In this document: piece by piece, positions 3,395 to 49,793 of the stretch
How positions within the stretch are numbered: position 1 is the stretch's first letter
How the letters are laid out: every line of letters starts with the position of its first letter
IMG/VR virus record: IMGVR_UViG_3300013936_000014
Source of the DNA: a virus
Taxonomy: Duplodnaviria > Caudoviricetes
DNA: 64,000 nt
Strand: one strand, 5' to 3'
Notes under the pieces: generated by a model
The model's database searches: none
Seen by the model: only the letters and a program-made list of their open reading frames with translations
What the model was told of the DNA's origin: nothing
Translations under genes and position numbers: made by a program

Positions 3395-4377
3395 CACATG
3401 GACCTTCTGTCTTTCACTTCCGCCATTTTGGCGTCGTTCATTTTCGTGGTGCCCTCCACTTTGGAATAGCCGAGGTATCCGCACACCCTGTTTATGGTGG
3501 TGAGGTTATGGGACCCGCAGAAACCGCAGACCTCGTCGGCATCGTCGGTCTCGTTCCCACAGTCCTCACAATAGGATTTCTCTATGTTCACACCGAAATA
3601 ATATCCCAATTTCATCGCGCGCCTTATGCATTGTTTGATATATGCCTCATTCATCCCAGAGACGAAACGGCAATATTGGATGTGCCCGCCGCTCGCGATA
3701 TGGAAATATCGGAATTCCGCGTCCTGCTTCTCATAAGGCGTAATATCCTCGGTCACATGCATATGAAAGGAATTCGTGAAATACGCCCTATCAGACACTT
3801 TGTGGATCACGCCATATTTCTTCACGAATTGCTCTCGCTGAGTCCCACAAAGAGACTCTGCCGGAGTCCCATAAAGGGCCGCTATATAACACAGTTTTCC
3901 TTCTTGATATTCTATTTTTTTCTCATCGACATAGTTGCTTATGTATTTAAGGACTTTGTAAGCAAAAGCATCTTCGTCGTTTCTCACGTCATACAAAGAT
4001 TTCCCGTTATAAAGTTCTTGCAGCTCGTTCAAAGCGGTGAATCCATAAGAGAAGGTTATCCTCTTGACAAGAGGAGCGATGTCGTCTGTCGGCTTGAGGC
4101 GTCCAAAACCGCCTTCGCAATATCCGACCGGATTGCAGCTCGCTTTCAGTTTGCATAAGAAATCGAACGTTTTTATATGGAGATGGTTGATCATATCAAG
4201 ATAATAATCAAGCACTTCATAAAATCCTTTTTTCTCTTTCAATGATTTCTCATAAATCATCGGAAGATTCAAAGAAATTGCGCCGCCGTTAAAACGCCCG
4301 GTAAATATCGGCCTGTCTTCATCGCTGGCCGGCTTCAATCCGCCCTTCTCATAATAGGCGGACAAGTAGGCTCTACA
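3394..4377 (-). CDS. nrdD: Anaerobic ribonucleotide reductase, exon 2 (starts CRAYLS)
   Basis: GRFNGGAISLNLP, YGTPAESLC, C-terminal Zn ribbon and RVCGYLG glycyl-radical motif. Confidence 0.92.
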   Translation of the reverse strand, partial: CRAYLSAYYEKGGLKPASDEDRPIFTGRFNGGAISLNLPMIYEKSLKEKKGFYEVLDYYLDMINHLHIKTFDFLCKLKASCNPVGYCEGGFGRLKPTDDIAPLVKRITFSYGFTALNELQELYNGKSLYDVRNDEDAFAYKVLKYISNYVDEKKIEYQEGKLCYIAALYGTPAESLCGTQREQFVKKYGVIHKVSDRAYFTNSFHMHVTEDITPYEKQDAEFRYFHIASGGHIQYCRFVSGMNEAYIKQCIRRAMKLGYYFGVNIEKSYCEDCGNETDDADEVCGFCGSHNLTTINRVCGYLGYSKVEGTTKMNDAKMAEVKDRRSM

Positions 4378-4639
4378 CGTTTTATCGAATGTCACCATTC
4401 GCACTGACTATATTATCAGCTTTCGCTGTTTCCTATTTGGACTCGGTGCTTATCTCCGAGTCTACTCCGTTACATTCATCGCGGATAGTCGATACAGGTT
4501 CCTAATCTTTTTATAACCAATAAGATTAAGCTTCTCACGGTCTCATCTTATTTCTAAGACCTAACCGTTAGCAGCGACTAGTGTCGCCACACCCCCGAGC
4601 GGGGTTAAGGAAATTTAAGATGGGCTGTAGTTTGCGCTT
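4378..4639 (-). mobile_element. Group I self-splicing intron in nrdD (262 nt, no ORF)
   Basis: Exon ends AUGGGU and pairs with intron GCCCAU (P1, U.G wobble); CUACA pairs with 3' exon UGUAG (P10); P7 GACUAU/AUAGUC; terminal G; splicing restores PMG-CR. Confidence 0.92.
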
Positions 4640-5926
4640 ACCCATCGGGCTGATAATCGAATCAACCCATTCAGGATTCTCCTGAACATTCTCGTTCTTA
4701 TCCAAATACCATCTGGACACTCCGAATTTATGATATTTCTTGAATATGTTTGCAATCTGCGGGTCGTAATGAGGAGCGTGGGCGCCTTTGATCAAAGTCT
4801 CGTCCGGCTCATCGAGCGACAGCCAGTCCGGATACATTGCCACACAGGAAGTCTTCACGCCTTCGTTGAACAACCATTCTAATGGCTTGCCTTCCCCATG
4901 GAGTTCTTTCGTATAAAGGAACACCATCTTCGGGAAGATCGCCGGACGTTTGTGGCCAGGATGTCCTTGTCCTTCGCGTCTGACTTTCAGTGCCGTGGAC
5001 CAAACCAGAGCGCCGAATCTCGTTTCGTCACATCCGCCGGTGACGGTGATGAACGGGTAATCGCCGCGGCTTGAAGCCACAGTGTTGAACGTATGCTCGA
5101 ATCCCTGGAATACCTGCTCGATATCCCTTTCGACTTTCTTGATCGCGTACTGATCCGCCGCATGCTCATCGTAATTGCCGTTCGTCAAAGCGCAGAGCGT
5201 TTTGTACTCGAGCATGTATTTGTCATAGGTTTTTTCGGCATAGGGGGCCAAGATCGAATCTATCTCCGGCAATGTGAACCCCCCGTATTGCTGAGCCGCG
5301 CAATTCAGCGTGATGTCGCTGATCAGATTGCCTGCGGTTCGCACATCTTTAGGCTCATTGTAACCTATATGCTCCCACTCAAATCCGCCTTGCAATACTT
5401 TACCCATATCGAATAAACAGCAGTTTCCTGTGTCCAGCCTAGCGGACAGATCATGTATATAAATATACCCGTCGCTCATGGCGGACAATTCCTCTTTGCT
5501 GAGAAAATTCTTTTTGTAGATCTCTTTATTCAACGCGGAATACACCATGCTTCTCTTCGTGGAGACGAGAGCCGCCGATGTGTTCGCGTTGCTGCGATCT
5601 ATCTTGTAATTCATTTCATCCGCCGTTTTGAGGACGTTATCCATCATTTTGATGAAATCTTCCTTGTAGTTGCGGTAATCCCTATATGCCTTCGCGACAT
5701 CTTTATTCACTTTATCCAAAGCGCACTCCACGAAATTGTGCATCTTGGCCACAGGGATATTATCTTGTCCGTCTTTCTCGATTTCTTCTCCGATGAACCT
5801 CTTTATGTCTTCGAGGTCTTTGCCAGACAAAGAGATATTCACCCTATCCGCCGACTTACTCACCGCGGATCTGATTTTCTCGAAATCGAAAGGGACACAA
5901 TGATTGTCTTTTTTAATAACATTCAT
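4640..5926 (-). CDS. nrdD: Anaerobic ribonucleotide reductase, exon 1 (ATP cone; ends ISPMG)
   Basis: N-terminal ATP cone, IYIHDL, NCCLFD, QQYGG, IFPK; spliced product ~756 aa. Confidence 0.92.
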
Positions 5927-15104: not shown

Positions 15105-15560
15105 TTACTTGCTTTCGTTGATTTTCTTCTCTTCTTCAGAAGTGACCATGAATTTGCGCGTGGTTTTCGCGCTTTTTTTTGCTTCTTTTGAAGAATCGAT
15201 CATATTGTTGAACCATCCGATGGTCTCATTGATGTAATCGGCCAATTTCTTGAGGTCGTCTTCGCTGACTTCAATTCCAGCTTCTTTGCATCCCGCCACG
15301 ACCGCGTCGATGACCATCTGTTGCTTCTCAGAGCCTTTCTTTCCGCTTGCTTCGGCTTCTTTCATGGCCGCCATGGCGATATCTTTGATTTTCGACCAAT
15401 TTTTGTTTTTCATCAGTTCCGCTCCTTTTTTGACCAAACTCACCGCGGTCGGCACCAGGGCCGCGACAGCGATGACAAAACCAGCTATGAAAGTGATGAG
15501 ATTCGCCCATCCTTCGACTGTGGTGGGCCAGATGGAATTTAAGATGATGATAGAGTTCAT
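15105..15560 (-). CDS. Putative holin (LL-H-like)
   Basis: Single N-terminal TM segment, AMKEAE..GKKGSEK motif, basic tail. Confidence 0.65.
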   Translation of the reverse strand: MNSIIILNSIWPTTVEGWANLITFIAGFVIAVAALVPTAVSLVKKGAELMKNKNWSKIKDIAMAAMKEAEASGKKGSEKQQMVIDAVVAGCKEAGIEVSEDDLKKLADYINETIGWFNNMIDSSKEAKKSAKTTRKFMVTSEEEKKINESK

Positions 15561-17380
15561 AATGTTTCCTCCTTTTTCCAAAGATATTTTTTAGAGCCAG
15601 AGCCCCATATGACGGCTTCTGCTTTCTCTTTGTACTCTTTGTATTTTGACGGATTGCGCTTATAGGCAACCCCATCGATCAGATAGGTCTTGTCAGGACC
15701 GGTGTATCCGACGAACTTCATCCCAATGGCTTCATAGGATCTGCCGTCGAATTTGTTGAAATCGCAATAGCTGAAAACCTCATCAGGATTGTAATCTTCG
15801 ACGAACCTGGAAAACAGTTTGCCCACGCCGCCGATCACCACATTATTGGAGCCCGGGCAGCCGCGGATGATCTCCCAGGAATTGCTTCCCTTCAGATTGC
15901 GATTATAGCGGGTTTTGCTGAAGCTCATCAATTGCACCAATTCCCCCTCATGGAAAAGACCATAGGTGACTTGGGCATTGCGATGCCCCTGCAAATGCAC
16001 TTTGTCATTAAGAGGCTTGGCCTCTTGATTAGTGATTTGCCTGATTTCGCATTTGCGAGCATAGATTTTTCTATCCACGATGCCAAGGGCTATCTTCAGC
16101 AATTGGATGATCTTGTCTTTCATGGCGTTCCACTCATATTCGTAGATGTGAATAAGACGGATGCCTTTCGATTCAGCCAGTTTTGATTTGTCAAAATGGT
16201 AATTCCTTTCTTTGACGGCATTCGAATGCCAATAATCGCCATTGAATTCGATACCCATCTTCTTAGAAGGAACGTAAATATCAATTTCCATTCCCCCCAA
16301 AACCTTTCGGTCATGGGAGACGAAGTCGATTTTCGATTGCTTCAGGAAAGACTGCAGCTCCAATTCGGGAGATGAAGTGTAAACAGAGAAATAATTTTCC
16401 CAATGATTCTTCTTTGCGGCGGTCCTCACTTTGTTATCCGAGCACCCCAATGCTTGAGCCGCCGCGGTATAATTTGGTTTGTCGCTGAAACTATCCGTCA
16501 GGAATTCTGCGAGCCTCTCTTCGGAAGCGAGAATTCTTGCAGATTTCTCAGATCCTTTGCCGACGGGATGATCAACGCCATATTTTTTGATGCAGTTTTC
16601 CCTGTAATGCGCTCTGACCGTCGATGAGGAAAAAGAGTTTTCCACTCCGAAACGCTCTTGGTTTGTTTTCCTTTTCGTAGCTTCTATGCAGGCTTGCGAT
16701 TTGCGAATGTCGTTTTCGGCAAGCCATTTCAGCAATGTCCTCACGCTCACTTTGAATCGAGCGGCGGTCTCCAATATCGAATGGGAATTTGCAACATAAT
16801 AATCATACAATTCTTCCCTAGAAGGAAGTTTTTTGGTTTTCTTTTCGCTTAACGCCTTTTTCGCCAATTTGGTTTTCGAATAGCACTCGACGCCATATTT
16901 TTCCAAACAGGTTTTTCTGCTTTTTTCGCGCACCTCTTCCGACTGCATGGCGTAATCGCAGCCCAAACGATCTCTCATGGAGTTCTTTCGGGTCTCTTCA
17001 ACCCCTTCCTTGTCTTTTTTGATCTCGTATCGGGACAGCCAGTTTCTCACAGTATCCAGAGACACCCCATAGAAAGAGGCCAGCTGCTTTTGCGTTTTTC
17101 CTCCCAAATATTCTTTTTCTAATGCCTCTTTGGCGGGCATTTTCCAGTCAAGTTTATTCACGGGGGGTTTTTTCTCGGAGACGGCAAAGTTCCTGCATAT
17201 CGTCTCCCTCCTTGTCTGAGCCACTTCCTCAGATGGTTTCTTGATATCATTCCTATGCAAAAATTTCTCCATGCCGCTGACGGATCTGTTAAAATGACCG
17301 GCAGTTTCCACAAGAGAACGGTGCTCGTTGACGTAATATTCCCTAACTTCTTCGGGATTTAATTTTGTCATTTTGCCCAT
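15557..17380 (-). CDS. Free-standing Hef-like homing endonuclease 1
   Basis: HTH plus KYGV repeats; EIDIYVPSKKMGIEFNGDYWH (Vsr/PD-(D/E)xK); C-terminal HLQG...SYCD domain. Confidence 0.8.
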   Translation of the reverse strand: MGKMTKLNPEEVREYYVNEHRSLVETAGHFNRSVSGMEKFLHRNDIKKPSEEVAQTRRETICRNFAVSEKKPPVNKLDWKMPAKEALEKEYLGGKTQKQLASFYGVSLDTVRNWLSRYEIKKDKEGVEETRKNSMRDRLGCDYAMQSEEVREKSRKTCLEKYGVECYSKTKLAKKALSEKKTKKLPSREELYDYYVANSHSILETAARFKVSVRTLLKWLAENDIRKSQACIEATKRKTNQERFGVENSFSSSTVRAHYRENCIKKYGVDHPVGKGSEKSARILASEERLAEFLTDSFSDKPNYTAAAQALGCSDNKVRTAAKKNHWENYFSVYTSSPELELQSFLKQSKIDFVSHDRKVLGGMEIDIYVPSKKMGIEFNGDYWHSNAVKERNYHFDKSKLAESKGIRLIHIYEYEWNAMKDKIIQLLKIALGIVDRKIYARKCEIRQITNQEAKPLNDKVHLQGHRNAQVTYGLFHEGELVQLMSFSKTRYNRNLKGSNSWEIIRGCPGSNNVVIGGVGKLFSRFVEDYNPDEVFSYCDFNKFDGRSYEAIGMKFVGYTGPDKTYLIDGVAYKRNPSKYKEYKEKAEAVIWGSGSKKYLWKKEETL

Positions 17381-23575: not shown

Positions 23576-25336
23576 TCATTTCACCGAATACACCCATACT
23601 TTGTTTCCCGAGTCAAAAATACGCTTATATCCTTGCTCATGCATTATTTTATCTTCGTCTTTCATCTGACACGAATATCTGGATCTCACTTCACCCCTCC
23701 TCTTCCACCAAACGTAATTCGGCTTCGAGATATGGTCCAGAGTGAAACCCAGCTTTTCATACAGATCACCTCTCATTTTAGAGATGTCGCTGTAAGAAAT
23801 GATCTTCTGACCAGAGACGGCGTTTTTCTTTAGGAAATAGGAAAACAATTTGCTGGCCCCTCCCAAAACGCGCACGTTCCGGAGAGAGCAGTATCTCGAT
23901 ATCTCCCAATCGCCGGCTTTCGAGAATCTAGGTTTGCAAAAACTCATGAGAGCCACGAGTTGGCTACCGTCATAGAGCCCATAGCAGACAGAGCAACGGT
24001 CGTTGCCTTGGAGGTGATTGGCATCCAAAAATGCTTTTTTGTCCTTTTTAACAATCTCCTTGACAGCGGTGTCTCTCGCATAAATGCGACGAGCGCCGTC
24101 ATCTGAGAGGAGCTCTCGGATAATGCTAAGCATTTTTTCCTTTTTTGTCGGATTCTCCCATTCATATTCGAAAATATTGAAAATGAAAACCCCTTTTTGC
24201 AGCGCCAACAAAGATTTTCTCTGATGATACAGGAGATCTTTTCTGGCCTCGCTGTGCCAATAGCTTCTGTTGAACTCGATACCAATCTGCCTGGCTGGAA
24301 CGTAGAAATCTATTTCTTTTCCAGAAAGGACCGACCTGTCGTGCTCGACGAAATCGACATTCATCCCTACCAAAAACGATTTTATTTCCTTCTCCGGCAA
24401 AAAATCGCGGTATCCTATCAAATCCTGCATGCCCCAAGCGTTGATTTTGTGGCCAACAGCTGTTTCGCTGCAACCAAGGTCCGCCGCAATCTCTACTATG
24501 GTCGGTTTTTCACCACCATATTGAGAAGAAATAAAATCACGAAGGTTTTCTTTTGTTGATAAGACCGATACGGCCCCTTGCGTCGCATGAATCTGACCCA
24601 CATGCTCAACCCCATACTTCTCATGCATGCCTTCCTTGAATTTTTTGCGGAATTCCTCATTTTGCATAGGGCTTTTGGCGCCGTATTTTGCCAAATTGGC
24701 ATCTTTTATTTTCTTCTTTATCTCCTCAGAGGCAAAGACATTATCAACGCCATATTTACTACGCACAGTAGCAATGGCTTTGTTTTGAACCTCTTCGCTT
24801 TTGAGGCAGCAGTCAACGCCATATTTTTGCAAGCAGGTGTTTTTTCTGCACTCTGAGATTTCCTCTGCGGTTTTTTTCACCCCGAATCTCTTCAAAAGCT
24901 TTTGGGCGGTGCTTTGGTTCATGCCGAATTTCTCCGCGCATTCCGCAAGGCTGTGTTTCCGCAGGCAATAGTAGTCATAGAATTCCTCTTTCGTAGGCGT
25001 TTTGTAATGCTTTGAAAGCGAATCTTTGATCTTCGATACCACATCGGCCCTCTTGGAGACGTTATCTACCCCGTATTTGCCGAAGCAGGTCTCTTTTCTT
25101 CTTTCCAGGGCCTTTGCGTTGAGCTTTTCCCTGGAACCGTATTTCTCCTCTATGGATTTGCTGATGGACTGTTTGAGCAAAGCTGCGTCTTTTTTGATGC
25201 CATAATGGGAAAGCCAATGACTTATGGTCGAAACCGACACGTGATAATGGGAGGCCAATTCGTCCTTCCTGAGATTTTCCAGTATGTATTTGGAGCGAAG
25301 CTCCTCTTTGTCTGGCATGTCGATTTTTTTGCCCAT
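23576..25336 (-). CDS. Free-standing Hef-like homing endonuclease 2
   Basis: KYGVDN repeats; EIDFYVPARQIGIEFNRSYWH; HLQG/GGASKL/SYSD; RBS before MGKK at 25336. Confidence 0.8.
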   Translation of the reverse strand: MGKKIDMPDKEELRSKYILENLRKDELASHYHVSVSTISHWLSHYGIKKDAALLKQSISKSIEEKYGSREKLNAKALERRKETCFGKYGVDNVSKRADVVSKIKDSLSKHYKTPTKEEFYDYYCLRKHSLAECAEKFGMNQSTAQKLLKRFGVKKTAEEISECRKNTCLQKYGVDCCLKSEEVQNKAIATVRSKYGVDNVFASEEIKKKIKDANLAKYGAKSPMQNEEFRKKFKEGMHEKYGVEHVGQIHATQGAVSVLSTKENLRDFISSQYGGEKPTIVEIAADLGCSETAVGHKINAWGMQDLIGYRDFLPEKEIKSFLVGMNVDFVEHDRSVLSGKEIDFYVPARQIGIEFNRSYWHSEARKDLLYHQRKSLLALQKGVFIFNIFEYEWENPTKKEKMLSIIRELLSDDGARRIYARDTAVKEIVKKDKKAFLDANHLQGNDRCSVCYGLYDGSQLVALMSFCKPRFSKAGDWEISRYCSLRNVRVLGGASKLFSYFLKKNAVSGQKIISYSDISKMRGDLYEKLGFTLDHISKPNYVWWKRRGEVRSRYSCQMKDEDKIMHEQGYKRIFDSGNKVWVYSVK

Positions 25337-25398
25337 AGAGTCTCCTTTCCGCAACAAAGCGATATGGTTGTGGGTCAGCTTTTGCCAACCCACAACCT

Positions 25399-30283: not shown

Positions 30284-32029
30284 TCATTTCACCGTGTATA
30301 CCCATGTTTTCGTTCCACAGTCGCATACGCGATGATAGCCAAGAGAATGCATTCTCTCAACTTCTCCCGCTTTTTGCTCTTGATAGCGGGTTCTCATGTC
30401 TTTTGTTTTGAAATTTATCCACACATAGTTCGGCGCATTCACCGAGACGCACTCAAAGCCAAGGATTTTATATAAATCTCCTTTTGTCTTTGTAATGTCA
30501 TTATAAGAAGAGACGGTATCGCCACTATTCAAATGTTCTTCTATAAATTCTTTAAATAGTTTTGAGGCCCCTCCTTGCACCGTCACACCGTGCTTTGTGC
30601 AATATCTTGTCAGCTCCCATGTGTATTTATTGTTTTTAGGATGAGAAAAAGTCATACAAGCAACCAATTCTCCATTGTATTTCAATCCATATCCGAGATT
30701 GGCCCCCGAATTTCCCTGTATGTGGTTCTGATTCAGGAATTCGGAACGCTCTTTGGAGGATAATTCCACCAAAACGCATTTTCTTGCGGGAATCTTTTCT
30801 TTGTTCAGAATCAAAATAGAACTCAAGCGGTCTTGGATGGATTTCCTAATTCGGGGATCGTTCCATTCTCTTTCAAAAATAGTAAACAGAAAAACCCCTT
30901 TCTTTTCGGCGTTAAGAGATTTCTCCTGAGCCTGAGTGGACCTTCCGCCATGATCGGCATAGAAAATATCGCTATGCCAATAATCTCCGTTGAACTCGAT
31001 TCCGATTTTGTCATCGGGCAAATAGATGTCTATCTCTTTTCCGTTCAGGACACTTCGGTCATTCTTGACTATGTTCTTAACCCCCAAATATTCCAATAAA
31101 TCAATGATCTCGTCCTCATAGCAATATCTTGGCGGATTCAAAGAGACAAGATCTTCCAATCCCCAGTTATGAACCTTCTCATAAATGACTGTTCTGTCGG
31201 ATAGATTAAAGTAATCCTTCAATTCGTACACAGAGGGTTTCTCTGGTAGGGAAGAAAGAAAACCTTTCATCGCATCTTCTTCTTTCCAAACATCGAGATG
31301 ATGCATTTCCTTTTGCATGTGATTCTGAACTCCATATTTCTCTAATGAAGTTTTAATTCTTTTCTCTCTATATTCTTTCGTTTTGGAATAATTATCAATG
31401 CCATACCTGTTTCGCGTGGTGCTCTTAATTTTTTCTTTTATTTCCTCTGACTTCATGACATTATCGACCCCGTATTTTTCCAAACAGGTTCGGGCCGCTT
31501 TCTCTTTTACATTCTGTAACTGCAAAGTCGAGACAACCCCGTATTTGTCTTCCGTCTTGCGTCTGATGACATCGTAACGAAGCTCAGGGTCTTTGAACAC
31601 CCCGTAATAAGAGAGTATCCTATGGAATACCGCGTAGGTGATCCCCAACGACTCGCACATTTCCTCAGAGGACCTGTTCTGCGTCAAATACTGGGTTTTC
31701 AGCCAATCTACCGTATATTCTTTGCCGCAGACGGTGAATCTTTCCGCATCGATAAGCCTGATTGGGCTGTCCGCGGCGGTTTTGTTAGCCGCGCCGTATC
31801 TGACGATATTGGTATTTCTGATTTTGTTTTTCACTTCCTCAGATTTTTGCGTCTGGGAGTATATCTTCGATTTGTCCTCTTTGGATCTCCGTATACCGTA
31901 ATTCCTGAGATAGCGGTTGAAGGTCGCTCTTGCGACGCCAAAATGATCGGCGCATTGCTGGGCGGTGTGAAGCCCACGGACATAATATTCTTCTATTTGC
32001 TCTTTGGTGATGTTGTTTTTTTTGCCCAT
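30284..32029 (-). CDS. Free-standing Hef-like homing endonuclease 3
   Basis: KYGV repeats; EIDIYLPDDKIGIEFNGDYWH; HIQG/GGASKL. Confidence 0.8.
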   Translation of the reverse strand: MGKKNNITKEQIEEYYVRGLHTAQQCADHFGVARATFNRYLRNYGIRRSKEDKSKIYSQTQKSEEVKNKIRNTNIVRYGAANKTAADSPIRLIDAERFTVCGKEYTVDWLKTQYLTQNRSSEEMCESLGITYAVFHRILSYYGVFKDPELRYDVIRRKTEDKYGVVSTLQLQNVKEKAARTCLEKYGVDNVMKSEEIKEKIKSTTRNRYGIDNYSKTKEYREKRIKTSLEKYGVQNHMQKEMHHLDVWKEEDAMKGFLSSLPEKPSVYELKDYFNLSDRTVIYEKVHNWGLEDLVSLNPPRYCYEDEIIDLLEYLGVKNIVKNDRSVLNGKEIDIYLPDDKIGIEFNGDYWHSDIFYADHGGRSTQAQEKSLNAEKKGVFLFTIFEREWNDPRIRKSIQDRLSSILILNKEKIPARKCVLVELSSKERSEFLNQNHIQGNSGANLGYGLKYNGELVACMTFSHPKNNKYTWELTRYCTKHGVTVQGGASKLFKEFIEEHLNSGDTVSSYNDITKTKGDLYKILGFECVSVNAPNYVWINFKTKDMRTRYQEQKAGEVERMHSLGYHRVCDCGTKTWVYTVK

Positions 32030-41602: not shown

Positions 41603-43271
41603 GTGCCAGTTGTGCAGAATCTATATCAGATCTTCAAAATTCCGGCGTCCGTCTTGGTCGCCAAAAACTGCATTTGGGACAATTATTCAAGAGCCCAAGG
41701 CTACAAAGACGGGAACATCGTCTCCATCGGCGACAACATCGTGTTCCAGCAGCTCCGCTATATCCACGGCGACATGCGCGAGCATCATGAGATCTTCAAT
41801 TACATCCAGCGTCTTCGCAATTCCATGAGGCGCTACAAAAAAGAAGGGAAGAAAGAAGAGGCGAAGATACTGGGATACAGGATAAACCAGGTCATGTTCG
41901 TGGAAGACATCGTGAACGTCTTCGTGGACGGCAAGAAATCCGATTTCCACAAATTCCGCACCAAGGGGTTCGAATTCAATGGGCACAGATACGTCTATCT
42001 CTGCTCGGGCGCCGGCCAGATCCGCCGCAACACCGCCACCTTCGTGCGCGAGGAATACCACGACAGGCTCGTCAAAACCATCAACTGCGGGCTCGACGAG
42101 AAGACCTCCGAGTTCGTCCTGGCGAAATACAGCGCCTACTTCGCGCTCGCTTTCTCCTCGATACTCTGGGTCCGCACCCCCCGCTGCTGCGTCATCAGGG
42201 ATTTCAAAAGAAACCTTCCCAAACAACCCGTCGACTTCATCTGCAAGGATGCCGCCGGCAAATCGATCATCGAGAAGCGCGAGATGGACGTCGAGCTCAA
42301 CTGCTTCGACGGGCAGGGGCTCATAGACCCCGAGTTCGCGCAGCTCTGGTCCGAGGACATGGACCTCAACTACACGCCATGCTCGTTTGTCGCCCGCTCC
42401 TGCTTCGTCAAGGGGAACCTCGCGACGTTCGACTTCAAAGCCTATGCCCGCGAGCACGGGATCAAAACCGTCAGGGACCGCTGGGGCAAGGAATACGACG
42501 TCGAGGACATCGACGTCATCCTCTCGGAGTCCCAGTTCAAGACCGCCAAGTATTACTCCTCTTGGGAGGAATACCTCGGCTACGCGAACGCGGGCAGCAT
42601 CCACTGGGGCGTCGCGAGATACAACAGGGAGACGGACGACGAATGGGTGCTGGCAAACTACCAGTACATCCAGTCGCTCACCCTCTCGAAAGACGACATC
42701 AAGGGGCTCATCGCCCCCACGATCGACTGGATAAGGAAGATCTGCTCCGGGGATGAGCTCTACACCCTGCTTTACTGCTTCGGCCCGAAATCCGGCTCAA
42801 GCGACTATCGGCAGATGCTTGGGACGGCGCAGACGACCATGATGAAGGCCATCGTGAAAAACGTCGACTTCCTCAAGGACTCATACGTTCAAGGCAAAAT
42901 ATACAAGAACATCGCCGAGACGATAAACAAGGCGAAGATCGGCAAGATATGGGTGCATGGCAATTACCAATTCATGGTGTCCGATCCGCTCGCCCAATGC
43001 CAATGGGCGCTCGGGCTCGACCCGGTGGGCGGGCTCAAGGCGAACGAGATATACTCAAAGTTCTGGAGCGACCGATTGCGGGAAGACCCCGCACGGGATA
43101 CGGGTTGCCTCGTTGACGCGTGCAGATCGCCGTTGATCGATCAGCATGAGCACAACCCGATGAGCGTCATCATGAACAACGAAGAAGCTGACAAATGGTA
43201 CAGGTTCCTGCCGAGCGGAATAATCTACAACTGCTACGACACGAGCTGCGCCAGGCACAGCGATTCGGACT
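41603..43271 (+). CDS. YonO-like single-subunit RNA polymerase, exon 1
   Basis: RdRP-like double-psi-barrel motifs (SGAGQIR, FDGQG, RSP); ends ..HSDSD+T. Confidence 0.85.
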
Positions 43272-43648
43272 TAACATCTAGGTCTTCCATATGGCGACAT
43301 ATGGTCAAGTCTTGGTGAACACGCAAAGTGGTGTGGGAGGGGAATCCCTCCTGCTAACATCAAAAACCGTAAAATAGGTATTGAAATGGAACGCAACAAA
43401 ACAATCGGCAATAAAAAGAAACAAAAGAGTCGATGGCTATTTGATAAGAAAAATACCTAAAGGCAATGATGTGCCAAGCCTCCGCAAGGAGGAAGGTGCA
43501 ACGACTAGGGAAACCGCCGGCAAAGCCGGAGAAGGGAGTACCGTAGGGGCGTCTGAGATGACGTCTCGAAGTGCCAAGCAACTCGGAAACGAGTTGAAGA
43601 AATAGTCTAAGCCCCTAATAAATATCGGGAAACCGAGGGTATCAACTG
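43272..43648 (+). mobile_element. Group I intron within the RNAP DFDGD motif (377 nt)
   Basis: P1 GGACU/GGUCU with U.G wobble; P7 GACUA/UAGUC; terminal G; splicing gives GAC TTC GAT GGT GAC. Confidence 0.9.
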
Positions 43649-44976
43649 TCGATGGTGACATAGTGATGACTACGGACAACCCGTACTTCATCAAAGGCTC
43701 CCACAAGGACCACAACATAATACTTTACGAAAAAGGCCTCGCGACCCCCGCGAAGATGACCACGTCCAACATAACGGCGGCTGTTCTCAGGGGGTTCGGG
43801 ACAGCTGTCGGGAGTTTCTCAAATTGCGCCACGATCATGTATGCGATGGCTGCGATTTTCGACAAGCCGGGCCAAGAGGACCAGGAAAACACAATTTACA
43901 ACCGAATAAAGCTTCTAAGAGAGATAGTCGGCCAAGAGATCGACAAAATAAAAGGCTGCAAACCTCCTCATCTCCCTTCTGACTGGAAGAAATACGAGCG
44001 CACGCTCCCAGACGATGAAGAGGAAGAAAGGCAGCGCAAATACAAACACAATGCTTTGGTGATATCGAAGAAACCCTATTTCTTCCGTTATCTCTACCCA
44101 GAGCTAAATCGTCGCTACAAGCAATTCGAGGCGTCCTACAACCAAGTCAGCCGCGACATGTTCGGGATCAAATTCAAGAAGCTTCTCGCCAAGCGGGACA
44201 AAACGCCAGAGGAGGTCGCGCTGGTCCGCAAATACCAGAAATACAACCCCCTCATCACCTCAAACTGCACGATGAACGTCCTCTGCAGGATGGTGGAGTC
44301 GGTCGACTTCGACATCCGCTTCGCGAAGGACGACTCGGACACGAGGAGGCAAGCCGTCTCCATGCTTCCAACATACGAGGGGTATTACGGCGCCTCCTTC
44401 TCGCAGGAGAAGTTCAATTACGTCAAGTCGCTCTACCGTCGCTATTGCTCCCGCCGCCAAATAAAACAATTGGAATCCATCATGGATAACGTGCCGACCA
44501 ATCCTTATTCCGACGATTTCGCGGAGATCAGGCACAACATGCTTGACGCATTCCTTGACGAATTGCGCAAAGATCTTGAGTCAAGCAATATCAACGATGA
44601 GGAATTCCTCTTCTATTGCTCCCGCCTTGCCCCAACCTATAACAATTTCAGCTGGGGATTCGCATGGGACGTCCTGGGGGATTCGATCTTGGAGGCAATC
44701 CCGCAAGGCAGAACCCTGTACCCGGTCCGCGACCCCGACGGCGTCGAGTATCTTGGGGGCCGCTACGTCCTGGAGGACATCTCCGACAAAGGGGAGCTCG
44801 CCATACAGTCCCTCCTCGATTCCGTCTTCGGGGACCCGGAGGGCACGCTCACCGAGGAGGAGATAGCCCAGATGGCGCGAGAGGAAAATCTTGACATCAA
44901 GGGGAAAAAATCGGATAATGACGCAGAAAGGGGAACGGAGAAGAAGGAAGGGAAAGACGATGACGAAGATGAGTGA
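43649..44976 (+). CDS. YonO-like RNA polymerase, exon 2
   Basis: (F)DGDIVMTTDN, GQEIDKIKG, KPYFF; spliced product ~998 aa. Confidence 0.85.
44891..44919 (+). promoter_or_regulatory. Sigma-A promoter inside the RNAP 3' end
   Basis: TTGACA-17-GATAAT. Confidence 0.55.
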
Positions 44977-45388
44977 GACCATAAGCAGAACAACGAAAGA
45001 GGAGATCGAGAAGCTTCGCATCGAGCAAAATCCCGTTCGCGACGAAGTCTGCTCTGTTCCTGGAATCGGCGAGACGTCTTTGGGAAGGCCCCGCAATAAA
45101 CTCGGCATCAAGGAAGACCGCAGGCTTTCTGCCCAATCCACCATCAGGCGAAATCTTGAGAGGCATGGGGTCAAGAACGCCTCCGCCCTTCCCGAAGTCC
45201 GCGCCAAGACAGAGAAGACCGCCATGGAGCGCTACGGCGTCCGAGCGTCTTCCCAATCCCCCGAGACCAAGGAAAGGCAAAAACGGACGAACCCGAGAAA
45301 ACACGGCGCCGGATCCCGCAAACACGTCTGGGAGCCAGAAGCCCCGGATGCCGACGAAAAAGGAAAGGAGGGCAGACAGGATGCATAG
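44960..45388 (+). pseudogene. Internally deleted Hef-like remnant (HTH and repeats fused to the C-terminal tail)
   Basis: TKEEIEKL..EQN, ERHGVKN/ERYGV repeats, then GAGSRKHVW resembling the GSGSKKYLW end of gene 1; no nuclease motif. Confidence 0.65.
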
Positions 45389-46148
45389 ACCGATAGAATT
45401 CACGGAGCTCAAGCCGCGCATCTGGCGGCAGCTCCACTCGATATACGAGGCGCACAAAGGGGCGGATCCCGCCCCCGAGTCCCTCGCCGCCCTGCTCGTC
45501 CCGCCCCTTGAGAACGCCGGCTTCTCCGCGGGCGACTCGGCCAGGATAGCCGCCTCGTTCGTGCGCAGCTTCGACGCGATCGGGGACGCCAAGGCCCTCG
45601 GGGACGCCCCGGACGCCCCGGATTACGAGTCGGCGGATTCCCCGTCCGGCCGCCTTCGCCTCACGCTGTCGCTCCTGGACGTCAACTGCCTTCGCGCGAT
45701 GCTGGCGGATGAGCCGTCCTGCGATGCCCGGCGCCTCCTGGTCGCCTTCGCGGCCTGGGACCGCGCCAACCCCCACCCCTCCGGGTGGATCCGCTACGAC
45801 CGCGCGGCCATAATGTGCCTGGCCGGGCTCACGCATCTCCGCCCGTCGGAGCAGGAGGCGCTCACCCAGCTCCTCCACCGCTCCCATGGGCTCGACATGC
45901 AGGTCGTCGGGTCAAACAGCCCCATCCCCTGCTTCCGCCTCTCGTGGCTGGAGGAGGAGCCGCCGATCGGATCCCCGGCCAACCCGGCCCAGGACATGGG
46001 CCCCCTCGCCCCCGCCTCAGTCGCATACGCGACGCGCGAGGTCCTCGGGCTCCCGCCCGCCGGCGAGGCAAAGGCGGACCGAGGAGACAAAGGCGGACGG
46101 AAGGCCGGCAACGGCGGAAGGAAAACCAAACAAGGAGGAAACATCTGA
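45381..46148 (+). CDS. Hypothetical protein
   Basis: AAGGAGG RBS; GC-rich codon usage. Confidence 0.6.
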   Translation: MHRPIEFTELKPRIWRQLHSIYEAHKGADPAPESLAALLVPPLENAGFSAGDSARIAASFVRSFDAIGDAKALGDAPDAPDYESADSPSGRLRLTLSLLDVNCLRAMLADEPSCDARRLLVAFAAWDRANPHPSGWIRYDRAAIMCLAGLTHLRPSEQEALTQLLHRSHGLDMQVVGSNSPIPCFRLSWLEEEPPIGSPANPAQDMGPLAPASVAYATREVLGLPPAGEAKADRGDKGGRKAGNGGRKTKQGGNI

Positions 46149-46897
46149 TGGAAACACGCAGGAAAGACGGCGGCGACGCCGAACGCAAATGGAAGGAGGC
46201 TTCCCAGGCGGCGGAAGCGGCGGAGGCCGCCCGCGAGGCGCGCGAGGGGCTTGAGAGGGAGACGGAAAGCCGCCCCTCCCTCGCCTCCCGCGCCAAGGCG
46301 GCGCTCGCGAGGAAGGCCGACCTCTGGCTCGTCGTCCCGCTCGACGGCGGGGCGGAAAGCGACGTCCTCTACGCCGCCCCCACCAAGAAGGAGGCCTTCC
46401 AGGCGGTCAACCTCCTCCTCTTCCGCCATCTCTTCCCCCATTATTCCATGTGGCTCCCGCTGCACGGATACGAGGGGGACCCAAGGCAATACGGGGCGGA
46501 CAGCGAGGCGTTCGCGGAATACGCCTCCGCCAACCATGAGGAGGCGGACGCCTTCGTCTCATCCCTCGCCATCCAGAGGGTGCGCTACGACATGGCCGGC
46601 GTCGCCTCCATGTTCCGCATGCTCTGCGGCATAGCCCCGATCGGCCTCAGGGGCGAGTCGGGCGAGGAGGTCTCCTATTGGCTCCTCCAGGCCGAGGAGG
46701 CCCTCAGGGAGATGGAAGAGGGGCAAAAGGAAAGCGAAAAAGAGAAAAGCCTTGACAAAGAGGCAGAGGCCGCCCATAATGAGGGGGAGAGGGCAACGGG
46801 CGGCGGACCCCAAAGGAAGAAGGGACGCCCCCGCGGAAACAAGGGTGCCCGGAAAAGCGCCCCCCGCCCCAAGAAAGGAGACCCAAATGGAAATTAA
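46148..46897 (+). CDS. Hypothetical protein
   Basis: GGAGG RBS; TGATG coupling. Confidence 0.6.
   Translation: METRRKDGGDAERKWKEASQAAEAAEAAREAREGLERETESRPSLASRAKAALARKADLWLVVPLDGGAESDVLYAAPTKKEAFQAVNLLLFRHLFPHYSMWLPLHGYEGDPRQYGADSEAFAEYASANHEEADAFVSSLAIQRVRYDMAGVASMFRMLCGIAPIGLRGESGEEVSYWLLQAEEALREMEEGQKESEKEKSLDKEAEAAHNEGERATGGGPQRKKGRPRGNKGARKSAPRPKKGDPNGN
46752..46780 (+). promoter_or_regulatory. Sigma-A promoter inside a CDS
   Basis: TTGACA-17-CATAAT; upstream GAGAAAAGCC identical to that of the 41029 promoter. Confidence 0.65.
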
Positions 46898-47234
46898 GGA
46901 CATCGAGGACGCCCCCGCCTATCAGGTCATCATGCAGGACGAGTACGACAACCTCTACCTCCTCGGGCTCTACGCGAGCCTGGAGGACGCCAGGAAGGAC
47001 GTCAACGAATGGCTCGCCGCGTACGACGAGGACGGCGTCAGATACCTGGAGGAGGGGGAGCTTTCCGAATACGCCTCCACCTTCGGCGGCTGCTTCGACC
47101 GCGAGGTCGAATGGAAGGGCGAGGACGGCGGCCCGGGATGCGTGGCGGTCAGGGGATTCGCCCTCAGCGCCAAGTCGCTCAAAGAAGACGCGGAGAGGAT
47201 CCTCCGCGCCGCCGACAAGGAGGAAACCAAATGA
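46887..47234 (+). CDS. Hypothetical protein
   Basis: AAGGAG RBS. Confidence 0.65.
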   Translation: MEIKDIEDAPAYQVIMQDEYDNLYLLGLYASLEDARKDVNEWLAAYDEDGVRYLEEGELSEYASTFGGCFDREVEWKGEDGGPGCVAVRGFALSAKSLKEDAERILRAADKEETK

Positions 47235-47647
47235 GATTCATCGAAAGGCTGAAGGGGCTCTTCAAGAAGAGAGAGACCGAGAGATCCACATTCGCCATCA
47301 CGTTCAGGCACTCCGCCAAGAGCATCGAGTTCGAGGGGACCTGGGAGGAGGTCAAGGGCCTCTTCGGGAAGTTCGCCGGAGGCAAGGGGCTGAAGATGGG
47401 CAACTTCTTCGTCCCGTGGGACGAGGTCGCCTTCATCTATCAGGAAGACAAAGAGGAGAAGAAGGACGAGGCGAAGAAGGGGCCGAAGCCGGGGGACGAG
47501 ATCCCCGCGACGCCCGAGGCGAAGGACCTCGGGGCGGAGACCATGGAAGTCCTCGGGGAGAAGGAAAGCCCGAAGGACGCGAGGATCGACGAGGTCAAGG
47601 CGGCGGTCGAGAAGGAGACCGAGGTCAAGGCCGAGGAAATCAAATAA
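47231..47647 (+). CDS. Hypothetical protein
   Basis: GGAGG RBS; ATGA overlap. Confidence 0.65.
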   Translation: MRFIERLKGLFKKRETERSTFAITFRHSAKSIEFEGTWEEVKGLFGKFAGGKGLKMGNFFVPWDEVAFIYQEDKEEKKDEAKKGPKPGDEIPATPEAKDLGAETMEVLGEKESPKDARIDEVKAAVEKETEVKAEEIK

Positions 47648-47670
47648 AGGAGGGAAACCTCCTTTTTTTT
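47646..47670 (+). terminator. Intrinsic terminator
   Basis: GGAGG-GAAA-CCTCC-T8. Confidence 0.8.
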
Positions 47671-47924
47671 CATGCCCCCGGAAAACGCCCCGGGGGCTTT
47701 TCGGGCGGGCCGAACCGAAATCAGGGGCCGCGGGCCGCCGGAGGCCGCGCGCGAGGCGGGGGGCGGATGGGGCAGGGGCGACGGCAACGGCTGCGGCGAC
47801 GACTCGGGGGAGCAGCGGCGGCTGCGGCTGCGGCGGCAACTCGGGGGGCGGGGGAGACCAGTGAAAGGGAAATAAGAAAGAAATTATTTCTTTTAAAATG
47901 TAAATTAGGGTTTTCCTGGTTTAC

Positions 47925-47991
47925 CGTCGACTAGGCGACGTTAAACAGCCGTCAGGCCTAGTGCGTCCTTCCTTTTAAGGGAAGGGGTCGG
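47925..47991 (+). ncRNA. Pistol self-cleaving ribozyme
   Basis: P1 CGUCG/CGACG; loop ACUAGG pseudoknots with CCUAGU; UUAAACA linker; P2 CCG/CGG; GCG; P3 hairpin; GU cleavage site at 47987/47988. Confidence 0.88.
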
Positions 47992-48020
47992 ATCGTATAT
48001 CCGAGAAAGGAGATACTCTC

Positions 48021-48236
48021 ATGAAGTATCGTTTCATTTCGTTCCGCACTTACGGAACAGGCGTCGTTCAATACGACACAAAGGCATTCATGTCTGAAGA
48101 CATGGGTGCCTTGATCGAGGCCGTCTGCCAGGAGGCCCGAATCCTCTTGGCGAACGGCCACGACCGCATCACGGTCCACGAGACCTGCGATGCGGAGGAC
48201 GCGAAAAGATGGAATATTTCCATCTGCCGCGTCTAA
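48021..48236 (+). CDS. Hypothetical early protein
   Basis: AAAGGAG RBS; 71 aa. Confidence 0.7.
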   Translation: MKYRFISFRTYGTGVVQYDTKAFMSEDMGALIEAVCQEARILLANGHDRITVHETCDAEDAKRWNISICRV

Positions 48237-49152
48237 GCCGCAAGGCCCCTCTCTCAAAAGAGAGAGGATCGGTGCAAGCCCGATGCCCCGAAAGGGGTGG
48301 CGCTCATGGCCTATGACCATCGAGGTTGCTCTCGTTAAAAAGCTATGGCGCTTTCAGGCGCCAGCGTCGTGCGAATCTTGACGCACGATGGCTGGGCAAG
48401 ACGCTTGAAGGCAAATGCCAGCGGTGGCAAACTCACCATCGCCCAGACGGGGGTCATCCCCGAACGGTGCAAAGCAAATAACCTCGCTTTGCGTAGTAAA
48501 AAAGAGGTAGACGCCCCTGCTTCCGCGGATCATCCGCAGGCGGTTGGGAAACGCACAAAGGAAAGCCAGGACTCAGAGCCTGGCGGCCCGATAAGGGAAA
48601 AGATGGAGCGACTGCAATCCAGGCAGGAAATGGCTTGGACTAACGCGCAACAGCGGCGCGGCGGGAAAACGATACCACTGATTTGATGTGGCTGGGTGAG
48701 ACGCCTCTCTTCTATGTCCTTCGACCGACGATCGAGGGAATGCGGATGGAGGGATGGCGGAAGTACCTCTGCCTCCTCATGCACGTTTCATGAGGGGGTT
48801 GGCACAGAGGGAAAACAGTCGCACCTCAAGGTGGGAGCTCGGTTGCGAAGCAACCAGGTGCACGGCTCGAATGGGGGAGATTCCCCCGGGCCCGGGAACA
48901 AAAATGACATGATTCTGCGGTGTCTTGGGTAGGTTTGCGTCGAAAACCTATCTCCGCGACCCTCAATCGTGTCTCTAGTCAACTGGAGCATCCTCCCTCA
49001 CGATGGAGGGTAACGTCTGCTTCAACGTCGTCGTGAAGAGGCAGTGAGGCGGCATCACGCCAAGACCAGGAAAATGATGGCAGATATCGGACGCGAGGGC
49101 GCTAAGGCCACGACAACGTTCGCGTTCCGGACAAAACATAGTGGCACCGCCA
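48237..49152 (+). ncRNA. Large structured non-coding RNA candidate (~0.9 kb)
   Basis: No RBS-led ORF; more than 15 hairpins; long-range helices; ends at a terminator. Confidence 0.65.
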
Positions 49153-49180
49153 GGGGCTGTCTTCGGACAGCTCCTTTTTC
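49153..49180 (+). terminator. Intrinsic terminator
   Basis: GGGGCTGTC-TTCG-GACAGCTCC-TTTTT. Confidence 0.85.
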
Positions 49181-49240
49181 TTAATGCGGCAAGCTGGTCC
49201 CAAGCCCAGCGGAAGACGCAGAGGGAGAAAGGAGACTGAT

Positions 49241-49696
49241 ATGTCTCAAAACAGAAAAGCGGAAGCTCGCCTCATGTGCGACTATCCGATCTTCGGGACC
49301 GTCTCAGACGTGTCCCGAATGAGCACAGGCGTCGTCTACGTCCGCCCGTGCTACTTCAAAGCAGGCGTGGACAAGGAGGTCGCGATCTTCCTTCGCGACG
49401 CGAAGAAGGAGCGCTGGGCGACCAAAGAGAATCTGAAGGTCGGCACCAAGCTGACCTTCATGATCAGCATCGACCCATTCAAGGGGCCGATGGCGACGAG
49501 CCTCAGAACGGTGAATGCCGCGCCGAAGGACGCGTATTCCGAGCCTTACCGCCCGGACTGCATCCCGGATGCGAAAGGCTTCCGCCGCATCATCGAGGCG
49601 GCGAGAAGACGGGACATGAGGGCTTGCCGCGAAAAGCTGGCGGCCTCATCCGACCCCGTCGACAGGCTCTTGGCGGCCATCCTGCCACGAGACTGA
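49241..49696 (+). CDS. Hypothetical early protein
   Basis: AAAGGAG RBS. Confidence 0.65.
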   Translation: MSQNRKAEARLMCDYPIFGTVSDVSRMSTGVVYVRPCYFKAGVDKEVAIFLRDAKKERWATKENLKVGTKLTFMISIDPFKGPMATSLRTVNAAPKDAYSEPYRPDCIPDAKGFRRIIEAARRRDMRACREKLAASSDPVDRLLAAILPRD

Positions 49697-49793
49697 GACG
49701 AAAAACAACCTGGCGCCCGCCTCCGAGGCGCATTCTAAATATCGGGGCTTTGGCGGTTCGAAACCGCAACGACGGTTTGATTGAAAGGAGAAC

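Follow-up and report, generated by a model that had tools for sequence, protein, structure and literature searches.

A large structured non-coding RNA of gut phages, predicted to be released by self-cleaving ribozymes

Introduction

What occupies about 0.9 kilobases (kb) of a phage gene block in which no credible gene can be found? We address this question for one locus in a 64,000-nucleotide (nt) stretch of a caudovirus genome (IMG/VR record IMGVR_UViG_3300013936_000014), which we call the window. Positions 48237-49180, embedded in a + strand gene block of a large phage, hold only short open reading frames (ORFs) without ribosome-binding sites. A sequence-only reading by a model had noted this gap, which our ORF listing bears out, and had proposed that it contains a large ornate non-coding RNA assignable to neither GOLLD nor ROOL. 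Those two are large ornate RNAs of phages and prophages, seen by cryo-electron microscopy as RNA-only homo-oligomers (PMC12286853). Here we find that positions 48306-49182 are almost certainly a structured non-coding RNA, and that this RNA is very probably released by cleavage of a twister-sister ribozyme at its 5' end.

Results

Homologues conserve a fold, not a reading frame

Homologues were reached by protein searches with a 113-amino-acid (aa) ORF of the interval and with an antisense ORF of a relative. These gave 24 clusters, from which the contigs were then retrieved; protein searches can reach homologues of an RNA here because gene callers had called spurious ORFs inside it. An exact two-block DNA pattern added five further metagenome loci. 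The resulting family comprises about 20 homologous loci from metagenomes (within L010-L031), in about 11 lineages with 60-99% pairwise identity and with lengths from 877 to ~1150 nt, and the RNA lies at the same syntenic site in all of them. Among GenBank phages, neither blastn with 47900-49260 nor tblastn with the 113-aa ORF gave a match. IMG/VR and GTDB genomes held no exact match to the two-block pattern, which detects near relatives only, and a search of IMG/VR for related loci with the flanking 71-aa and 151-aa proteins found none.

The longest ORF (48345-48686, 113 aa) starts with ATG and has no ribosome-binding site. In L015, which is nearly identical to the window (94% by blastn; 98% over aligned columns), two 1-nt deletions fall inside it; other homologues carry several 1- and 2-nt indels in the region, and 1-nt indels break the frame in every one. 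Substitutions are flat across codon positions (20/24/29, 23/23/24 and 22/27/28), with neither a kept frame nor a third-position excess. No ORF is shared between homologues on either strand, the longest ones differing in place, frame and strand, and those in databases are 70-222-aa fragments of different parts of the RNA. Proteins from the interior matched nothing in Pfam, in PHROG or, by tblastn, in phages. A coding signal in 48345-48686, against which the sequence-only reading had asked its proposal to be checked, is thus absent.

Covariation, by the same token a check that it had named, is abundant and above controls. Folding energy beats that of shuffles on the + strand (z = -4.3) and also on the - strand (z = -3.5), so that folding energy alone is weak evidence. 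RNAalifold applied to 7 sequences gave 225 pairs, 47 of them changed on both sides. In an independent count on the same 7 sequences, 97.1% of cells were paired and 47 pairs were compensatory, against ~40% pairing and 2-10 compensatory pairs in slid controls, where partners were moved by 1-3 columns. None of 500 shuffles reached the observed compensatory count, although the sequences are related and this control may therefore overstate significance; the slid control is the safer one. Moved unchanged to 14 sequences, the same structure kept 95.0% of cells paired; compensatory pairs numbered 65, where slid controls gave 11-21, and the covariation score was 0.261 (controls, 0.05-0.085). Compensatory pairs beyond controls, as expected of structured RNA generally, were thus found in both sets (47 against at most 10; 65 against at most 21). 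Helices are linked by long invariant A-rich single-stranded segments (GGCCCGAUAAGGGAAAAGAU, GCGGGAAAACGAUACC and GGGCCCGGGAACAAAA), and two pseudoknots each show at least one compensatory event. Compensatory change combined with invariant joints is the signature of a complex folded RNA.

This fold corresponds to no known family that we could find. Rfam was scanned at its curated gathering thresholds and, for 47500-49700, by a permissive cmscan at E<=10. Even the latter returned only three ribozymes and two chance matches, none of them in the RNA interior: the covariance models of GOLLD, ROOL, OLE, HEARO and raiA gave no match, and neither did the group I/II intron and RNase P models. The proposal of a large ornate RNA that is neither GOLLD nor ROOL therefore stands.

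Helices and pseudoknots of the RNA

The main structural features, all on the + strand of the window, are as follows.

48306-48320, +: 5'-terminal hairpin AUGG...CCAU, with AUGG/CCAU in nearly all homologues
48321-48340, +: hairpin CGAG-N6-CUCG followed by UUAAAA, from the alignments
48353-48409, +: long three-part hairpin (48353-48373 with 48382-48409); 10 compensatory pairs in 7 sequences, 12 in 14
48468-48508, +: hairpin UGCAAAGC/GCUUUGCG, whose stem covaries, with an H-type pseudoknot
48565-48584, +: hairpin GCCAGG/CCUGGC with invariant loop ACUCAGAG, followed by invariant GGCCCGAUAAGGGAAAAGAU
48702-48759, +: long hairpin domain (48702-48724 with 48732-48759); 10 compensatory pairs in 7 sequences, 13 in 14
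48906-48973, +: two-helix domain, outer helix 48906-48916/48963-48973 and inner helix 48928-48936/48945-48953
49087-49145, +: 3'-terminal pseudoknot, helix X 49087-49096/49120-49130 and helix Y GCCAC 49107-49111/GUGGC 49141-49145

The 5'-terminal hairpin would reuse the 3' strand of twister-sister P1 by refolding after cleavage; in L027 a different, longer hairpin takes its place. The hairpin that follows belongs to a module of variable copy number at the RNA 5' end (alignment columns 100-170): the window has one copy of CGAG-N6-CUCG, whereas L011, L015, L017 and L018 have two each and L010, L019 and L020 have three. The upstream copy in L018 reads CAGG/CCUG, a compensatory change. Two RNAalifold runs gave 48322-48336 different long-range partners (48605-48615 versus ~48981-48995), and a local hairpin is also possible.

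In the first pseudoknot, an A-rich linker separates loop ACCUC (48481-48485) from its pairing partner GAGGU (48504-48508). The pairing is invariant in close homologues, and the distant L031 has CCC/GGG for CCUC/GAGG. Hairpin GCCAGG/CCUGGC shows two compensatory pairs, CA/UG to UG/CA. The 48906-48973 domain has 6-8 compensatory pairs in its outer helix and 3-4 in its inner one, and the inner stem is one of several whose sequence is wholly exchanged between homologues (here UAGGUUU/AAACCUA versus GCGCAAU/GUUGCGC). At the 3' end, C-G and G-C replace one another within the outer 5 pairs of helix X in 4 of 8 sequences, alongside variation in other pair types; its inner 5 pairs fit only the 4 window-type alignment rows and were otherwise read by eye. 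A single exchange to GCCAU/AUGGC (L022) is the sole support for helix Y. The loop of this pseudoknot carries a palindromic AGCGCU (49098-49103), identical in 7 of 8 homologues (AGUGCU in L017), which is a candidate kissing loop for self-association.

Most of the local hairpins listed in the sequence-only reading are therefore real and covary in homologues, among them GCAAAGC/GCUUUGC with its ACCUC/GAGGU loop pairing, GCCAGG/CCUGGC and GGUUGC/GCAACC. For CCUCCUCAUG/CAUGAGGGGG compensatory changes are visible, but many cells are broken in this poorly aligned stretch and support is weak. Its nested long-range helices fared worse. In diverged homologues CCAUC/GAUGG is paired in 8 of 25 cells, and GUCUUGG/CCAAGAC in 16 of 35. 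UGGCG/CGCCA uses a strand of the twister-sister ribozyme and its 3' partner is not conserved. These three fail in homologues; GCGACUG/CAGUCGC alone is partly kept, with a single exchange of C-G for U-A, though most homologues have an A.A mismatch in it.

Three ribozymes and their predicted products

The locus contains matches to three self-cleaving ribozymes, which would divide it as follows.

47925-47992, +: pistol self-cleaving ribozyme (RF02679), 67.1 bits, above the gathering score of 34.5
48021-48236, +: gene for a 71-aa protein, p71, with ribosome-binding site GAAAGGAG and its stop codon within twister-sister P1
48233-48316, +: twister-sister self-cleaving ribozyme (RF02681), 56.7 bits, above the gathering score of 34
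48306-49182, +: predicted mature large structured non-coding RNA, 877 nt, with a 5'-OH (from twister-sister) and a 2',3'-cyclic phosphate (from twister)
49178-49229, +: minimal type-P1 twister (RF03160), 43.3 bits, E 1e-7, below the gathering score of 67.2

Pistol is also present in L010, L012, L020, L026, L029 and L008. Its cleavage presumably falls at G47987^U47988, in the GU linker between P3 and the P2 3' strand, which we take from the alignment to correspond to G53-U54 of the ribozyme.

Every homologue opens with twister-sister, at scores of 57-68 bits. Both of its characteristic loops are present: L1, in which GCAAG faces GCUCAU and which contains the C^A step, and SL4. GCAAGG, GGUGCAAGCCC and GCGCUCAUGG are invariant in 14 sequences, and P3 and P5 covary. 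The residues of L1 and the cleavage step within it, C62-A63, are described (PMC5660989), and mapping that step onto the window predicts cleavage at C48305^A48306, in the L1 strand GCUC^AU. The CUCUCUC/GAGAGAG stem and the 'T-loop-like' AUCGGUGCAAGCCCGAU of the sequence-only reading are real stems, though their identity is that of twister-sister P3 and P4. That reading thus missed the nature of the 5' end, as it did the twister 3' of the terminator-like hairpin.

The twister scores low because it has 3 nt in place of a 21-nt optional stem, and we regard 49178-49229 as twister-like, probably active, and not a certified member of RF03160. The match recurs at 43-45 bits in L010, L011, L012 and L026. 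Its core (UAA, GC, GGUCCCAAGCCC and GAGGG) is invariant in 6 sequences, and compensatory changes occur in P2 (UGCG/CGCA to UGCA/UGCA) and at the base of P4 (G-C to A-U). Cleavage is presumably at U49182^A49183, which we take to be the U^A step of UAA. P1 abuts the ribosome-binding site of the next gene.

Pistol, twister-sister and twister lie between the cistrons of one transcription unit. With these cleavage sites, the predicted products are a 318-nt mRNA (47988-48305) encoding the 71-aa protein and an 877-nt RNA (48306-49182); that is, the three ribozymes predict a discrete transcript with defined ends.

The 3' boundary varies between lineages

The RNA proper ends near a conserved AAAACAUAGUGGCA motif at ~49146, and two kinds of element can follow it.

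49152-49175, +: G+C-rich UUCG hairpin with U tract, intrinsic-terminator-like, preceding twister P1
L010:613-703, 2370-2460 and 3517-3607, L011:1337-1427, L014:2364-2454, L018:2799-2889 (outside the window): three-hairpin element, ~90 nt
L022, and L027:160-250 on the - strand (outside the window): further copies of the three-hairpin element

The window, L015 and L026 have the hairpin-plus-twister unit. A 3' twister directly after the RNA is confined to the window/L012/L013, L015 and L024-L026 lineages, so ribozymes do not bracket the RNA family-wide in the way of retrozymes or viroid-like RNAs. In L011, L017, L010, L014 and L026 the twister is likewise preceded at this position by a hairpin, but one unrelated in sequence. 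Wherever the twister occurs, this hairpin keeps its shape and not its sequence, and it covaries. The UUCG terminator at which the sequence-only reading had ended its element does exist, with its U tract, as part of a unit with the twister, and in relatives this unit follows other genes. The window and L015 lack a ~270-nt domain found in most relatives.

The three-hairpin element consists of H1 (GCUACC/GGUAGC), H2 (a stem of 10 base pairs, CUUCUUARRC/GYYUAAGAAG, then a 3x3 internal loop and an inner stem of 5 base pairs) and H3 (GAAGG-GAAA-CCUUC), which overlaps H2. It is 96% paired, with 8 compensatory pairs against 0-2 in controls, and has no counterpart among Rfam families. Copies lie ahead of several inserted genes, and in L027 one takes exactly the place of the twister, before the 151-aa gene. 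The twister unit and the three-hairpin element look interchangeable, and the latter may be either a processing site of the RNase III type or a ribozyme not yet recognised as such.

A 71-aa protein gene accompanies the RNA

The p71 gene is adjacent to the RNA in all 17 loci that cover the site and normally ends inside twister-sister P1. In these 17 loci the protein is always 71-72 aa, without indels, at 39-100% identity. The most distant p71 (39% identical, in L031) is again followed by twister-sister and then by a strongly diverged RNA. The p71 gene, twister-sister and RNA co-occur in every locus, L031 included, and all three are missing from G001 (complete) and G002, two IMG/VR relatives identified through their polymerase (58-67% identical). 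The three behave as a single accessory module.

G002 keeps pistol and twister at the same place, where they bracket two ordinary small genes. In that phage (L008:2979-3749) the pair consists of pistol and a type-P5 twister, the latter at 38.2 bits, just above its gathering score, and the bracketed genes are A/T-rich. The pistol/twister pair marks a site of cargo exchange.

A profile search of 1.84 billion representative proteins with p71 found only four clusters of 71-72-aa proteins plus repeat-protein noise, and the protein belongs to no Pfam or PHROG family. Its AlphaFold model has a predicted local distance difference test (pLDDT) score of 87, the earlier run on 11 sequences having given 64, and shows a beta-beta-alpha-beta-alpha-beta order, a small alpha/beta sandwich. 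Foldseek on the PDB gave nothing below E 0.6 for this fold, and the best VIA-align Z was 5.4, within the noise range.

Genomic setting

Two features flank the processed region.

47890-47910, +: promoter-like motif TTTTAAAATGTAAATTAGG, putative start of the transcription unit, 3' of the terminators and G-rich tract
49241-49696, +: next gene, 151 aa, outside the RNA, with its ribosome-binding site directly 3' of the twister

Upstream of pistol (47646-47915), two tandem terminator hairpins (47646-47702) are followed by a G-rich tract (47703-47860; ~160 nt, runs of 4-7 G) and then by an A/T-rich hairpin and a AATGTAAATT motif. The same order of terminators, G-rich tract and AATGTAAATT core recurs in L010:1-290 and L031:580-850. 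A sigma-70 consensus scan found no match. The transcript appears to start at the AATGTAAATT motif, after the two terminators and the G-rich tract. Downstream, homologues of the 151-aa gene occur in L010, L011, L014, L015, L017, L019, L026 and L027, with 0-3 genes inserted in between. The gene directly after the RNA varies by lineage: it encodes 97 aa in L011 and L017, 146 aa in L010 and 151 aa in the window. The interval itself has a G+C content of 57%, above most of the phage.

Further upstream lies a YonO-type single-subunit RNA polymerase (41603-44976; Pfam RdRP PF05183, phrog_8308), whose nearest cultured relatives belong to phages infecting Bacillus, Enterocloster and Clostridium; terminase and further phage genes are on the opposite strand of the window. 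The family is carried by large (~130-155 kb) gut Firmicutes phages with a YonO-type RNA polymerase. In the window this polymerase is covered by two ORFs, 41603-43318 and 43663-44976, corresponding to phrog_8308 positions 75-550 and 574-720. Exactly between them is a weak group I intron match (RF00028, 43276-43630, +; 27.5 bits, E 0.002, gathering score 50), and the gene may be split by an ORF-less intron.

Two other regions of the window stand out. Positions 45000-47900, ~3 kb, have 62-66% G+C and a strong A-over-T skew, versus 43-55% G+C in most of the window; ORFs there overlap on both strands, have no Pfam or PHROG matches and are uncertain as gene calls. On the - strand, 4568-5926, 15557-17380, 23576-25393 and 30284-32029 encode a 452-aa fragment of an anaerobic ribonucleotide reductase (NRDD plus ATP-cone), together with three large DUF7487/helix-turn-helix proteins similar to homing endonucleases, which suggests several intron or intein-type insertions in the source phage.

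Discussion

The explanation that we strongly favour for the locus as a whole is a ribozyme-processed transcript that releases a large structured RNA of an undescribed family, which would form a particle with p71. One transcript would start just upstream of pistol and be cut by the three self-cleaving ribozymes, cuts that we infer to take place in vivo. Pistol would remove the leader, and twister-sister would part the 318-nt p71 mRNA from the RNA, leaving the RNA with a 5'-OH. In the window lineage the hairpin-plus-twister would set the 3' end in one of two ways: cleavage, which leaves a 2',3'-cyclic phosphate, or transcription termination at the hairpin of this unit. The released RNA would be stable, capped by its 5' hairpin and by the 3' pseudoknot plus hairpin, and an RNA-p71 particle would be active during infection, in the manner of GOLLD and ROOL. 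That p71 acts together with the RNA is suggested by their strict co-occurrence only, and we put it forward with some hesitation. More tentative again is the fullest form of the proposal, a new ~1-kb phage RNA class with ribozyme-based biogenesis, a particle with p71 and an activity of its own in infection, be it catalytic, scaffolding or anti-defence.

Several observations, besides the relatedness of the aligned sequences mentioned above, weigh against parts of this explanation. The twister scores below the Rfam gathering threshold, and most lineages have the three-hairpin element and not a twister after the RNA, so that the chemistry of the 3' end is no trait of the family as a whole; the transcript could also stop at the terminator-like hairpin with no cleavage involved. 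In the consensus, several long-range helices are built on pairs that do not vary, and other pairings can be drawn. As for p71, Foldseek and VIA-align reveal no recognisable RNA-binding fold in it, other DNA lies between its gene and twister-sister in L010 and L029, and its linkage to the RNA may reflect only shared inheritance.

Among other explanations of the locus, the one we take most seriously, while still thinking it unlikely, is that the excised RNA is circularised by host RtcB into a stable circle, as in retrozymes and viroid-like elements. Ribozymes of two classes directly bracket the RNA in the window, L015 and L026, and ends with a 5'-OH and a 2',3'-cyclic phosphate are RtcB-compatible. 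However, no twister lies at the RNA 3' end in L010, L011, L014, L017, L018, L022, L027 or L019, and since most lineages lack it, circularisation cannot be the conserved mode of the family; in the window lineage it is possible. Moreover, no conserved pairing of end with end was found, the end-to-end helices of the sequence-only reading failing in homologues, and reverse self-ligation is unavailable because the ribozymes are of different classes. Two related phage records have no RtcB (PF01139), which is uninformative, as both lack the RNA and a host enzyme would suffice. It is very unlikely that the RNA is instead an exceptionally long cis-acting leader or stabilising 3' untranslated region that controls p71 or the 151-aa gene. 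It does share a transcription unit with both genes, twister P1 abutting the next ribosome-binding site and the p71 stop codon lying inside twister-sister P1; yet the ribozymes separate it from both, and ~900 nt of conserved multi-domain structure with invariant junctions far exceeds known leaders. A leader function is further unlikely because the downstream gene differs between lineages.

We give slightly less credence still to an element that moves or splices itself, for instance an intron lacking an ORF or a ribozyme-carrying cassette. The p71/twister-sister/RNA unit is present in some related phages and absent from others, the pistol-twister site holds different cargo in G002, and a group I intron-like sequence exists elsewhere in the window. 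But the interval interrupts no gene and is free of group I/II intron matches (E<=10), flanking repeats and integrase, and the RNA never leaves its syntenic site. Least credible of all, to the point of being hardly tenable, is a protein-coding or decayed gene (for example ORF 48345-48686) whose hairpins are incidental in G+C-rich DNA. The interval is indeed richer in G+C than most of the phage, the 113-aa ORF has its ATG, and gene callers called it, along with antisense ORFs, in public assemblies. Set against this are the broken frames and flat codon positions described above, and a decaying pseudogene would not retain 95% of 225 pairs through compensatory change.

A structured RNA released by ribozymes, which we prefer to these alternatives, would matter in several ways. 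Few large, intricately folded RNAs are known from bacteria and phages (GOLLD, ROOL, OLE, HEARO and raiA), and each has opened new structural biology. Because self-cleaving ribozymes set its ends, the mature form of this one should be predictable to the nucleotide and could be made in vitro without engineering, and its obligate protein neighbour p71, with no known fold, offers a second handle on it. The locus also bears on the decade-old question of the role that twister, twister-sister and pistol play in bacteria and phages: with all three in one transcript, predicted to release a discrete mini-mRNA and a structured RNA, that question becomes directly testable. In 2019 a review described these ribozymes as functional orphans whose role in bacteria and phages was unknown (PMC6765202). 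Were the particle interpretation true, the RNA would give the orphan ribozymes twister-sister, pistol and twister of bacteria and phages their first defined biological product, and the three-hairpin element would be either one more self-cleaving motif, so far unrecognised, or a site at which host RNase III takes over this task.

How does this RNA compare with known systems? The literature searched describes no large RNA fused to twister-sister, although such a description may exist elsewhere; on that literature and on Rfam (E<=10), the family is previously undescribed. It resembles GOLLD and ROOL in its phage location, its size class (0.88-1.15 kb against 0.6-0.9 kb), its many covarying helices, invariant A-rich junctions and pseudoknots, and in having no assigned function. 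It differs from them in showing no similarity to their Rfam models at E<=10. Moreover, a self-cleaving ribozyme forms its 5' boundary and it has a small protein gene of its own; to our knowledge, neither trait has been described for GOLLD or ROOL. RAGATH motifs, by comparison, are short. The RAGATH set, from which twister-sister itself originated, is defined by structured RNAs in the neighbourhood of twister-class ribozymes, and the setting of the phage RNA matches it (PMC11061315), but there is no Rfam 15 RAGATH match and the RNA is physically fused to its ribozyme, not merely near one.

Retrozymes and viroid-like circular RNAs are ribozyme-flanked non-coding RNAs of 0.6-1 kb, and the likeness lies in a ~1-kb non-coding RNA freed by terminal self-cleaving ribozymes (PMC4918200, PMC7761336). 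Those elements use the same ribozyme class twice, multiply by replication or retrotransposition, and form circles, whereas the phage RNA has ribozymes of different classes, is a single-copy gene in a DNA phage and mostly lacks the 3' ribozyme. Finally, ribozyme processing of polycistronic bacterial and phage transcripts is a hypothesis under discussion (PMC6765202). The placement of pistol, twister-sister and twister between the cistrons of one operon is as that hypothesis would expect; it concerns mRNAs of differing stability, however, and here one of the predicted products is a large structured non-coding RNA.

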